A stretch of 38,195 nt of DNA from Candidatus Pacearchaeota archaeon (GCA_046705325.1 JBJKQQ010000002.1:1-38195), one strand, 5' to 3'. Counted from the first letter of the stretch, positions 10,079 to 12,675 are shown. Made by a program: numbers and translations. Notes: generated by a model not told the origin, from the letters alone.

Positions 10079-10298
10079 GGGAAATTTAAGAATTCAGATT
10101 TTATAAAATTAAAGAAAATGATAGAAGACAGTTCAATGAGTTCGCGCCTTTTGGGAGCTATAGTCATCGACGCAAAGGGCTTAGCTTCCGGGTTCGGAAA
10201 GAGACCGGGCGTTTCCCCTTTGCTTTGACCGTCTTCAAAAATTACTCAATATCTGGATTTATAAAACTTTTTATAGGGTCAATTTCTTGATATTTCAC

Positions 10299-10382
10299 GC
10301 GGGGGTGCCGGAGTGGTCAAACGGGCAAGATTAAGGCTCTTGTGGGTTAGTCCCTACACAGGTTCGAATCCTGTCTCCCGCA
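10299..10382 (+). tRNA. Class-II tRNA-Leu. The anticodon loop TTAAGGC reads AAG in the canonical register.
   Basis: The cloverleaf folds by hand. Acceptor GCGGGGG/CTCCCGC, anticodon stem CAAGA/TCTTG, long variable arm GGG..CCC, T arm ACAGG-TTCGAAT-CCTGT, discriminator A. TATA-like sequence lies about 29 nt upstream. Confidence 0.8.
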
Positions 10383-10433
10383 TGCATCGACAGGATTCTG
10401 GACCCCGGATCGAAAACATGGAGGAGGTTTTCA

Positions 10434-10454
10434 TTCGAATCCTGTCTCCCGCAT
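10434..10454 (+). repeat. 21-nt direct duplicate of the tRNA-Leu T-loop/acceptor 3' end
   Basis: TTCGAATCCTGTCTCCCGCAT at 10363-10383 recurs exactly at 10434-10454. A T5 run (10454-10458) follows only the second copy. Confidence 0.85.
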
Positions 10455-10566
10455 TTTTCAAGTTTAAGTTAAATCTCTTCAAAGAAAACCGGCCAAAAAG
10501 AGATACGCTTGGTTAGCTTAGATAGTTTAGAGAAAGATATATAAAATTAAGATTCTTCTTAAATTC

Positions 10567-11607
10567 ATGAAAATATTGTTGTCTAGAGAATCAAAGAAAA
10601 AACTACTTAAGTCCTTGCTTGAAAAAAATTTTTGCAGTTCTCTAAAGGAACTTTCAGAGATTCTAAAAATATCCAAGGGAACTTTAAGCGATTGGTTTTA
10701 TTCTGGAAAGAGATATTTGCCTGAAGAGATCATCCCTATACGCTTGAAGAGCAGGTTGCAAATTTTGGATCTCCAAAAAGATAATTGGGGGAAGATTAAG
10801 GGAGGAAAAGAAACTTACAAAATAATCTCCAAAAAATACGGGAAATCTGAAATCAAAAGAAGGCAGTCTCGGGGAGGAAAAGTTTCTGGAGAAAATCGGG
10901 GGAGCCTCGACAAACCTCTAAATCTTGATTTATCAAACAAATATCTTTTGGAATTCTACGGCGCGCTTCTCGGCGATGGCTGGATGGGAATATATAATGC
11001 TAAGAAAAAGCCCATTTATCTCATTGGTATTGCAGGCCATCTGACCCGGGATAAGGATTATCTTCTTTATCTGAGAGAAATAGTAAAAAGGTTTTTTGAC
11101 CGGAAAGGTTATCTGAAAGAAAGACCCCGCTACAATTGTTTAGAATTGCATTGTTATCATAAAAAACTCCTCTCCTTTTTTAATCAAAAATTAAACTTTC
11201 CTGTTGGCAAAAAAATTAATTTAAAGATCAACGATGAAATAGTCGAGTCTGGTTTTGATAAAATGAAATATGTGATAAGAGGAATATTTGATACTGATGG
11301 CTCTTTTTATTTAGACAAAGATCCTGCCGGAATGCCTTATCCTTGCATTTCCTTAACAATGAAATCTCCTCTGCTTTTGGAACAGGTTAGTAAGGTCTTG
11401 TTGAACGAGGGATTCAAAGTGAGTTTCAGGAAAGAGAAATATATGCTAACTCTGAAAGGAAAAAAACAAGTTTCTAAATGGTTAAAATCGATAGGTTTTT
11501 CAAACGAAAAACACCTAAAAAAGATAAGGTCCTGTAACTCAGCCTGGATAGAGTGCCACCCCCCTAAGGTGGAAGTCGTAGGTTCAAATCCTATCAGGGC
11601 CGCTTGA
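10567..11607 (+). CDS. LAGLIDADG homing endonuclease (double-motif) with an N-terminal HTH-like region. The ORF tail reads through tRNA 11528-11602.
   Basis: LAGLIDADG motifs LLEFYGALLGDGWM and VIRGIFDTDGSFY. TATATAAAA (10538-10546) lies about 25 nt upstream of the ATG. There is no in-frame stop before 11605-11607. Confidence 0.8.
   Translation: MKILLSRESKKKLLKSLLEKNFCSSLKELSEILKISKGTLSDWFYSGKRYLPEEIIPIRLKSRLQILDLQKDNWGKIKGGKETYKIISKKYGKSEIKRRQSRGGKVSGENRGSLDKPLNLDLSNKYLLEFYGALLGDGWMGIYNAKKKPIYLIGIAGHLTRDKDYLLYLREIVKRFFDRKGYLKERPRYNCLELHCYHKKLLSFFNQKLNFPVGKKINLKINDEIVESGFDKMKYVIRGIFDTDGSFYLDKDPAGMPYPCISLTMKSPLLLEQVSKVLLNEGFKVSFRKEKYMLTLKGKKQVSKWLKSIGFSNEKHLKKIRSCNSAWIECHPPKVEVVGSNPIRAA
11528..11602 (+). 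tRNA. tRNA, probably Arg(CCU). The anticodon loop is CCCCTAA, with an unusual C at position 33.
   Basis: A 75-nt cloverleaf. Acceptor GGTCCTG/CAGGGCC, D arm ACTC..GAGT, anticodon stem CCACC/GGTGG, T arm GTAGG-TTCAAAT-CCTAT. Confidence 0.7.
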
Positions 11608-11664
11608 TCTCTTATGAATTTCAAACATAAACTTTAAAATATGCCTTCTCAATAAGAATTATAA

Positions 11665-11735
11665 GCGCCGGTGGTTTAATGGTAGAATCTCTGCCTTCCA
11701 AGCAGATGACCCGGGTCCGATTCCCGGCTGGCGCA
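11665..11735 (+). tRNA. tRNA-Gly(UCC)
   Basis: Acceptor GCGCCGG/CTGGCGC, anticodon stem TCTGC/GCAGA with loop CTTCCAA, T arm CCGGG-TCCGATT-CCCGG. TTTAAAATA at 11634-11642 lies about 28 nt upstream. Confidence 0.85.
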
Positions 11736-11745
11736 TTTTGACAAA

Positions 11746-12675
11746 ATGGCAGAATCAGAAGAAAAAACCGAAAAACGTGAAAGAAAGTTCAAAGAGAAAT
11801 TCGCAAGATTCTACCGCAAGAACTACAAAAAATTTCTTTTTGTAACTGCAACGCTAATAGCATTCTGCTTTGTTTTCATAATAATTTTCCACGCGCAAAA
11901 CGGCGACTTCATCCACAAAGATATCTCGCTTGCAGGAGGAACATCCGTAACTATCTATGATTCTTCACTGAACATAAACCAGTTAAAGCAAGACCTTCCG
12001 CAGTATCTTGGAGAGGTTGATGTCCAGTCAATAAAAGATCTTGTGACCCAGGAACAGAAGGCGGTCATAATAGAAACTTCTGCAGATTCGGACAACGCGC
12101 GGCAAATTTTGCAAAATTATCTCGGATACAATCTGACCGAAAAGAACAGCAGTTTCGAGTTTACAACGCCTTCGCTCGGAGGGAGTTTCTACCAGCAATT
12201 GCTTATTGCAATCTTGATAGCCTTCGCATTCATGTCTATAGTCGTTTTCATTCAGTTCCGGACCTTTGTTCCCTCGGCGGCAGTTGTAATCTCCGCTTTC
12301 GCGGATATTTTCATGACACTCATTGTTGTCGATATAATGGGAATGAAACTCTCGACTGCGGGAATCATCGCATTCCTTATGCTTATCGGTTATTCTGTAG
12401 ATACAGATATTTTGCTGACTACAAGAGTGTTGAAACGGGATGAAGGTTCAAACAATGAAAGAATATTCAAGGCATTCAAAACAGGTATTACTATGACCTT
12501 GACTTCGCTGGTTGCGGTTTTGTCCGCGCTGGTAATCACGAGTTCTTTCTCTTCTGTGTTGTCTCAGATTTTCACCGTTTTGGCAATCGGCCTAGGATTT
12601 GATCTGTTCAACACATGGGTTACGAACGCATCTATAATTAAGTGGTACGCTGAAGGCAGGAGGAAAAAGAAATGA
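11746..12675 (+). CDS. secF: Protein-export membrane protein SecF
   Basis: 309 aa. One N-terminal TM segment, a periplasmic-type loop, then five C-terminal TM segments. It lies directly upstream of secD (ATGA overlap), the archaeal secF-secD order. Confidence 0.75.
   Translation: MAESEEKTEKRERKFKEKFARFYRKNYKKFLFVTATLIAFCFVFIIIFHAQNGDFIHKDISLAGGTSVTIYDSSLNINQLKQDLPQYLGEVDVQSIKDLVTQEQKAVIIETSADSDNARQILQNYLGYNLTEKNSSFEFTTPSLGGSFYQQLLIAILIAFAFMSIVVFIQFRTFVPSAAVVISAFADIFMTLIVVDIMGMKLSTAGIIAFLMLIGYSVDTDILLTTRVLKRDEGSNNERIFKAFKTGITMTLTSLVAVLSALVITSSFSSVLSQIFTVLAIGLGFDLFNTWVTNASIIKWYAEGRRKKK

Follow-up and report, generated by a model that had tools for sequence, protein, structure and literature searches.

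Mobile genetic elements are known from several settings that resemble the locus reported here. In the atp6 gene of Allomyces macrogynus, a mobile endonuclease ORF reportedly carries a replacement gene end, an arrangement said to have been described by Paquin et al. in 1994. The SegB gene of the T4 tRNA cluster is said to have been studied by Brok-Volchanskaya et al. in 2008. T4 SegB is a free-standing phage homing endonuclease that uses intron-less homing and belongs to a tRNA gene cluster (PMC13096335). At the tRNA-Thr(GGU) locus of Caldiarchaeum subterraneum (Sugahara et al. 2012, PMC3293823), a mobile insert is preceded by a 5' tRNA fragment and followed by a working tRNA with the same anticodon, with heterogeneity at the population level. 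All 39 archaeal group I introns are in rRNA genes (Nawrocki et al. 2018). A full-text literature search returned no account of LAGLIDADG genes lying within archaeal tRNA genes.

An endonuclease reading frame runs through a complete tRNA-Arg(CCT) gene

We analyzed a stretch of 38,195 nucleotides from a Candidatus Pacearchaeota archaeon (GCA_046705325.1, JBJKQQ010000002.1:1-38195), referred to here as the window. On its plus strand, an ORF of 346 codons starts with ATG at 10567 and ends at 11607, where a TGA at 11605-11607 is the first in-frame stop. A complete tRNA-Arg(CCT) occupies 11528-11602 of the same strand and also makes up ORF codons 321-346, so the last 26 codons are tRNA sequence and the stop lies 3 nt beyond the discriminator base. 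Both ARAGORN (11528-11603) and Rfam (11528-11602, 57.6 bits) called this tRNA, and ARAGORN found it as the sole tRNA-Arg(CCT) copy in the source assembly, which is 67% complete. To the left are a minus-strand 5S rRNA (10123-10236) and tRNA-Leu(AAG) (10299-10382), both called by ARAGORN and Rfam. To the right are tRNA-Gly(TCC) (11665-11735, plus strand), likewise called by both and the resident right-hand neighbor, and secF (11746-12675), which together anchor synteny to empty sites.

A prior sequence-only reading had described an AT-rich gene that crosses an entire tRNA and begins 113 nt past a tRNA-Leu scar. The ORF and tRNA coordinates bear out the crossing, and the start codon does fall 113 nt after the second copy of a duplicated tRNA-Leu 3' end (10363-10382 and 10434-10453). 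The composition was only mildly biased: the GC content of the ORF is below that of the window (34.7% versus 39.8%), at about the 20th percentile of equal-sized windows.

The neighboring tRNA features showed several peculiarities of their own. The tRNA-Leu 3' end is duplicated over 20 nt around a 51-nt spacer (10363-10453), and matching duplications occur at uninterrupted tRNA-Arg(CCT) genes in G188 (locus L083, about 1018-1104) and G063 (locus L107, about 100-195). The spacers share a motif, …aacccgcagg.ggtt.t…, with the window form aaaacatggaggaggttttca, and oligo-T follows the second copy only; the duplication has the look of a small recurring element, or of a T-loop intron with a spare 3' end. 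The anticodon loop of the window tRNA-Arg(CCT) (11559-11565) reads CCCCTAA, with C at position 33, and T33 was present in all relatives and same-genus tRNA-Arg(CCT) genes inspected. In the 67%-complete source assembly, ARAGORN found no tRNA-Arg(TCT) and called many intron-bearing tRNAs, with introns of up to about 126 nt. A small ORF starting …QEDPMGCG(I/S)… comes after tRNA-Arg(CCT) in at least two relatives, of which one carries the endonuclease gene and another lacks it (L083, 1110-1515, in G188; L003, 4085-4210).

The encoded protein has the motifs and predicted fold of a LAGLIDADG homing endonuclease

The two LAGLIDADG motifs noticed earlier are present as LLGDGWM and FDTDGSFY, and the ORF product matched Pfam LAGLIDADG_3 at 35.4 bits (cut-off, 22.5). 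The motif aspartates, D137 (LLGDGW) and D244 (FDTDG), are invariant in 29 homologues. We modeled the protein with AlphaFold2 (mean pLDDT, 87.6); residues 326-346 fell below 50, and the remainder was confident. Pfam and Foldseek place a monomeric two-motif nuclease core at residues about 122-320 (10930-11527, plus strand), and residues about 122-325 are predicted to adopt the pseudo-dimeric alpha-beta-beta-alpha-beta-beta-alpha LAGLIDADG fold. Residues 1 to about 121 (10567-10929, plus strand) form an extra N-terminal domain, confident in the model and helix-turn-helix (HTH)-like by weak Pfam HTH matches, that falls outside the Foldseek matches to short LAGLIDADG structures.

Foldseek gave TM scores of 0.75 for I-Tsp061I and 0.68-0.70 for I-DmoI, and its list also held I-AniI, bI3 maturase, the I-OnuI family, and WhiA. 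The probability was 1.00 for I-Tsp061I, I-DmoI, I-AniI, and the I-OnuI family, and bI3 maturase had the top E-value. These relatives came from the fold search only, as a PDB sequence search with E up to 1 returned no matching chain. By motif and fold, the product is predicted to be a monomeric two-motif LAGLIDADG homing endonuclease.

The ORF-tRNA junction recurs across DPANN archaea

We found more than 180 matching proteins in Pacearchaeota/Woesearchaeota-type DPANN archaea, at about 45-56% identity over residues 1-320, with C termini that resemble translated tRNA 5' ends (…ALVAQSG, …ARVAQLG, …LECHPPKVDVVGSNP). Among 80 related loci taken from species-representative genomes, a tRNA gene overlaps or touches the ORF 3' end in about 65. 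In close relatives the partner is, almost without exception, a same-strand tRNA-Arg(CCT) that begins within a few bases of the conserved protein end. The commonest overlaps are 25 nt, where the stop is the D-loop TAG, and about 40 nt, where it is the TAA of T36-A37-A38; overlaps of at least 80 nt, like that in the window, occur in 10 of the 32 Arg-linked loci.

The first in-frame stop lies inside or past the tRNA in 28 of these 32 loci, which excludes the sequencing error near the stop codon that had been raised as a possible objection. The same junction recurs in dozens of genomes, and on that ground we rejected both sequencing error and chance overlap. The 26 tRNA-derived codons, earlier proposed as a possible protein tail, form no conserved one: all three frames occur among the relatives, tail lengths differ, and the tail is disordered in the model, so a conserved tRNA-encoded tail was also rejected.

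More distant clades adjoin tRNA-Thr(GGT), tRNA-Thr(TGT), tRNA-Ser(GCT), or tRNA-Arg(GCG), and in some the ORF end is antisense to the tRNA, on the opposite strand. On the enzyme tree, tRNA partner and orientation require 26 label changes, versus 41.7 in shuffles, and 0 of 200 shuffles were as low. Since the overlap with a tRNA is independent of orientation, it reflects packing at the DNA level and not a device that depends on cotranscription. The frame's run through the tRNA is a side effect of tight packing. For annotators this is a warning that such ORFs lack a stop of their own and that the neighboring tRNA stubs are not genes. The endonuclease-tRNA design recurs across DPANN archaea. The closest pair of sampled enzymes is about 55% identical and none are near-identical, so no recent transfer was caught directly; a search of viral contigs for relatives of the enzyme found none.

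The source assembly holds a second, Thr-clade LAGLIDADG gene at 34% identity (locus L002, contig C54:9421-10600). This gene has its own stop and no inner tRNA, and an intact tRNA-Thr(CGT) lies just upstream. Its flanks contain a degenerate tRNA stub with a TATA box (…CCAATAGCTCTAGAGCACAAAGTATAAATA) and a decayed tRNA 3' part (GGTCGGGAGCTCAAATCTTTCTACAGGCT).

The gene lies within a former tRNA-Arg(CCT) gene

We built a profile from the 68 nt before the ORF in 26 relatives, leaving the window out. Its best match in the window was 10503-10560 (E = 2e-6), and its second match was the tRNA 5' part at 11524-11553. Based on the first match, GCTTGGTTAGCTTAGATAGTTTAGAG (10507-10532, plus strand) is a decayed stub left from the 5' end (about positions 1-26) of the tRNA-Arg(CCT) gene formerly resident here, and the TATA-like box ATATATAAAA (10537-10546, plus strand), which ends 20 nt before the ATG, is the putative promoter of the ORF itself. 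Thus, where the sequence-only reading had the gene merely lodged between tRNAs, we place it inside a former tRNA gene.

The relatives share this layout: a TATA box (about -33), a tRNA 5' part comprising positions 1 to about 26 (e.g., GCGCCCGTAGCTCAGCCTGGATAGAGC), a second TATA box, about 25 nt, and the ATG. The D-arm motif of the stub is present at -75 to -31 in 25 of the 32 relatives, compared with a control-window background of 0.9%, and an A/T octamer occurs at -42 to -15 in 31 of 32. This conservation suggests that ATATATAAAA functions as a promoter, from which the ORF mRNA would be leaderless or near leaderless. As for Seg/Mob-type intron-less homing, the conserved layout and the TATA box are seen, and the promoter and co-conversion are putative.

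Some relatives keep the other half of the broken gene

Past the complete inner tRNA, loci L011, L014, L019, L030, and L035 carry a tRNA 3' part that usually resumes at T33-CCT-AA. L012 keeps the whole anticodon arm downstream, L018 keeps only the T-arm and acceptor end, and the 3' parts of L015 and L021 are degenerate. The acceptor stems of stub and 3' part are complementary and lineage specific in L011, L014, L018, L019, L030, and L035 (examples from the relatives are GCATCCG/CGGGTGC and GCTCCTG/CAGGAGC); in L012, the acceptor end was not reached in this comparison. Thr-type clades are nested likewise; their stub covers positions 1-15, and their 3' part begins at the variable loop.

The dead outer tRNA-Arg 3' parts of L035 (4074-4190) and L012 (4045-4200) contain T-loop insertions of about 50 nt, longer in L012, where the insertion consists of repeated hairpins.

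Paired outer halves could be exons, with the ORF and inner tRNA forming one giant intron removed by the archaeal splicing endonuclease. Archaeal rRNA has ORF-bearing introns that would be a model for this, the closest structures, I-DmoI and I-Tsp061I, are intron encoded, these genomes have many odd tRNA introns, and the acceptor strands pair in the six relatives named above. However, when we joined the flanks over a grid of end points, ARAGORN recovered a tRNA-Arg(CCT) in just 2 of the 31 loci. The joined sequences fail because they lack the 5' strand of the anticodon stem (positions about 26-32), and we rejected the outer halves as spliced exons on this result. The 3' half is absent from most loci, the window included, and the complete inner tRNA, which has the same anticodon, makes a spliced outer tRNA needless. 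Nor did any intron family match: Rfam returned no intron at its gathering score, nor with E relaxed to 1, and group I, group II, and other catalogued introns were rejected accordingly. A giant intron is, in our judgment, very improbable. The wider class of intron- or intein-encoded endonucleases does not fit either, as the ORF has its own ATG and TATA box and joined flanks rarely give a tRNA. The description of a free-standing LAGLIDADG gene is therefore borne out, the intron or intein signature being absent.

Most relatives, like the window, have no visible 3' fragment. Compared with the same-genus loci L083, L085, and L091, the right junction of the window (11603-11625) contains no recognizable 3' fragment of the old tRNA gene, and homology to the same-genus genomes, in the tRNA-Gly promoter, resumes at about 11626. 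The window insertion is old or reshuffled, with its 5' stub decayed and its 3' half gone. The T-arm of the window tRNA (GTCGTAGGTTCAAATCCTATC) is identical to that of same-genus resident genes. Together with the missing 3' fragment, this means that the 3' part of the window tRNA could be resident rather than cassette DNA; the other possibility is recombination between the two copies.

If the 3' part is resident, the inserted unit could consist of a promoter, the ORF, and a new tRNA 5' part (about positions 1-32, under the ORF end) fused to the resident 3' part. The window tRNA would then be chimeric, and a second 3' half would never have existed here, as the absence of a 3' fragment from most relatives would also allow. 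We consider this partial replacement unlikely. The acceptor 3' strand of the window tRNA, CAGGGCC, fits its own 5' strand and not the resident CGGGCGC, and recombination between T-arms that deleted the duplicate would look the same as a chimera. Moreover, L011, L012, L014, L018, L019, L030, and L035 carry a separate, host-like 3' part past a self-consistent inner tRNA, as do three relatives of the Thr type; in L015 and L021 this part is degenerate.

Occupied and empty sites in related genomes

Genome G178 (locus L019) is occupied, and in the same-genus genomes G170, G197, and G063 the tRNA-Arg(CCT) gene is uninterrupted. G178 can be matched to G170 and G197 on both sides of the gene; the G063 contig begins just upstream of its gene. 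By BLAST, flank homology between G178 and the empty sites ends exactly at the stub end. The insert (L019 2968-4041, 1.07 kb) replaces about 8 nt, corresponding to tRNA positions 25-32, and contains the LAGLIDADG ORF and a tRNA only. Compared with the G170 gene, the outer stub of G178 agrees at 23 of 25 positions and its outer 3' part at 39 of 41, with the single acceptor difference compensated, whereas for the inner tRNA the counts drop to 17 of 25 and 31 of 41. In this one occupied/empty pair, the flanking halves are host-like and the inner tRNA is foreign. The flanking genes of G178 and its congeners share only 70-78% identity, yet the dead halves are almost undecayed, which argues for a fairly recent arrival in G178. 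We sought a second occupied/empty pair via L030 and found none, its genus being a single genome.

We also considered an integrase-driven tRNA-gene element. The 1.07-kb insert holds no integrase or recombinase, and such an element is further contradicted by insertion at positions about 25-32 rather than at the 3' end.

In the genus of the window, G104, G009, and G188 have a syntenic locus of tRNA-Leu(CAA), tRNA-Arg(CCT), tRNA-Gly(TCC), and secF without the ORF. Comparison with relatives lacking the endonuclease, a check suggested at the outset, thus yielded empty sites, but the insertion could not be delimited within this genus because the left flank of the window (5S rRNA and tRNA-Leu(AAG)) is not syntenic with its congeners. 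In G009 (L085/L089), the 5S rRNA and tRNA-Leu(AAG) are inverted and about 5.3 kb distant, and the gene before tRNA-Arg is tRNA-Leu(CAA); set against window positions 10123-10382, this arrangement indicates that the left side of the cassette was rearranged. Related genomes are polymorphic for presence or absence at one defined site.

A protein search found the Arg-type gene in 5 of 201 genomes of the order and returned no Arg-type match in the five other genomes of the window's genus. This patchy spread bears on whether the protein is still, or ever was, a mobile nuclease. The HTH-LAGLIDADG protein could instead be a host factor, e.g., one that regulates by binding DNA or RNA or that assists the adjoining tRNA much as a maturase would, inherited vertically and frequently lost. 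Intact ORFs in nearly all loci despite about 50% identity, the extra HTH domain, the stable position in the Leu-Arg-Gly cluster, and the presence of bI3 maturase and WhiA among the fold matches would all suit such a domesticated protein. Maturases such as bI3 have lost the motif aspartates, however, and here both are invariant. Domestication also sits poorly with the sparse distribution, with the recent arrival indicated by the nearly undecayed outer halves in G178, and with sister clades at other tRNAs in either orientation. We regard it as improbable, though less so than the giant intron.

A cassette that may cut a tRNA gene and supply its replacement

In the window and in the relatives, we found no conserved or well-placed TATA box at the right distance before the inner tRNA, in agreement with the sequence-only reading. 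Third codon positions vary freely at the ORF end before the inner tRNA, and a hidden conserved tRNA promoter in that segment was rejected for this reason. The lack of a TATA box and the free synonymous sites suggest that ORF and tRNA are probably one transcript, as had been proposed; this is the likeliest reading given the missing TATA box. RNase P, whose RNA is encoded in the source genome (145.7 bits), would cut this transcript at 11527/11528 and leave an mRNA that ends right after codon 320, the conserved protein end, while unprocessed RNA would give a 26-residue disordered tail.

We propose, at a probability of roughly 0.7, that a homing-endonuclease cassette destroyed the resident tRNA-Arg(CCT) and supplies a replacement, with ORF and tRNA made as one transcript. 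The cassette would span about 10537-11603 (about 1.07 kb) and consist of a TATA box of its own and an intact HTH-LAGLIDADG gene that passes directly into a complete tRNA-Arg(CCT), with neither spacer nor stop codon between them. It would sit within the former resident tRNA-Arg(CCT) gene of the tRNA-Leu/tRNA-Arg/tRNA-Gly/secF cluster and be transcribed from the cassette promoter. The enzyme would cut uninterrupted tRNA-Arg(CCT) genes near the junction of D-arm and anticodon stem. Repair from an occupied allele would then copy in the TATA box, ORF, and tRNA, using the tRNA halves as homology, and the cassette tRNA would take over the function of the destroyed gene. Judged from the sequence, the element appears to bear its own tRNA copy and to have left part of the resident gene as a fragment, as expected of endonuclease elements that carry a replacement.

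Several observations weigh against this proposal. The window has no 3' fragment and a nonsyntenic left flank, and no two sampled enzymes are near-identical. A weak A/T-rich stretch, TTTTTCAAA, about 35 to 27 nt before the tRNA, is a possible poor internal promoter; some inner tRNAs, which would have to escape cutting, look like ordinary resident types around the insertion point; and the window tRNA has C33 in place of the near-universal U33.

The idea that the selfish gene hitchhikes on a tRNA, which hinders its loss, survives in part: the gene is physically tied to an important tRNA, but it is not borrowing a resident unit. In place of the promoter-less tRNA unit supposed earlier, we see an inserted unit with its own TATA box, to which the tRNA belongs. 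Since the cassette holds the only tRNA-Arg(CCT) found, loss of the cassette would mean loss of that tRNA.

More tentatively, the system could be a natural "cleave-and-rescue" drive whose substitute tRNA resists cutting, so that the selfish unit becomes indispensable to its host. Such events, recurring at one tRNA gene after another, might then be a main source of tRNA stubs, split tRNA genes, and oddly placed tRNA introns in DPANN and other archaea; we hold this broader view to be possible, with the odds somewhat against it. If the enzyme cuts empty-site tRNA genes, the cassette would provide a compact natural counterpart of engineered cleave-and-rescue gene drives, a concrete mechanism for archaeal tRNA gene fragmentation, and a source of LAGLIDADG enzymes with specificities keyed to particular tRNA genes. 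An odd single case becomes a general, testable design: an endonuclease gene with a spare tRNA, nested in a broken tRNA gene.

Comparison with known systems

T4 SegB resembles the window gene in being free-standing beside tRNA genes, with its own promoter (a putative one in the window), and its preferential inheritance goes together with flanking markers (PMC13096335). SegB is a GIY-YIG enzyme encoded between intact phage tRNA genes, whereas here a LAGLIDADG gene interrupts a cellular tRNA gene and carries a substitute; the predicted nuclease fold of the window enzyme differs from GIY-YIG or HNH. The 1.8-kb insert of C. subterraneum (PMC3293823) carries a recombinase gene and has been interpreted as transposable or integrative. 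Unlike the window, this insert has no LAGLIDADG gene and no ORF-tRNA overlap.

I-Tsp061I and I-DmoI share with the window enzyme a two-motif, single-chain LAGLIDADG fold with the motif aspartates kept, an archaeal host, and a conserved stable-RNA gene as the (here predicted) target. Those two enzymes are encoded in rRNA bulge-helix-bulge introns, whereas the window gene is not in an intron: it interrupts a tRNA gene and has a putative replacement tRNA attached, and its product has an extra 120-residue N-terminal HTH domain.

The mobile endonuclease ORFs of fungal mitochondria are alike in landing in an essential gene, bringing the displaced part with them, and stranding the resident fragment. 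Here, however, the host gene is a tRNA gene in an archaeal chromosome, and the best-kept relatives appear to supply the whole gene and not just its end. There is also no in-frame fusion to a host protein, the stop of the ORF being borrowed from an RNA gene. The general principle of an endonuclease that brings a replacement gene end is known from fungal mitochondria.
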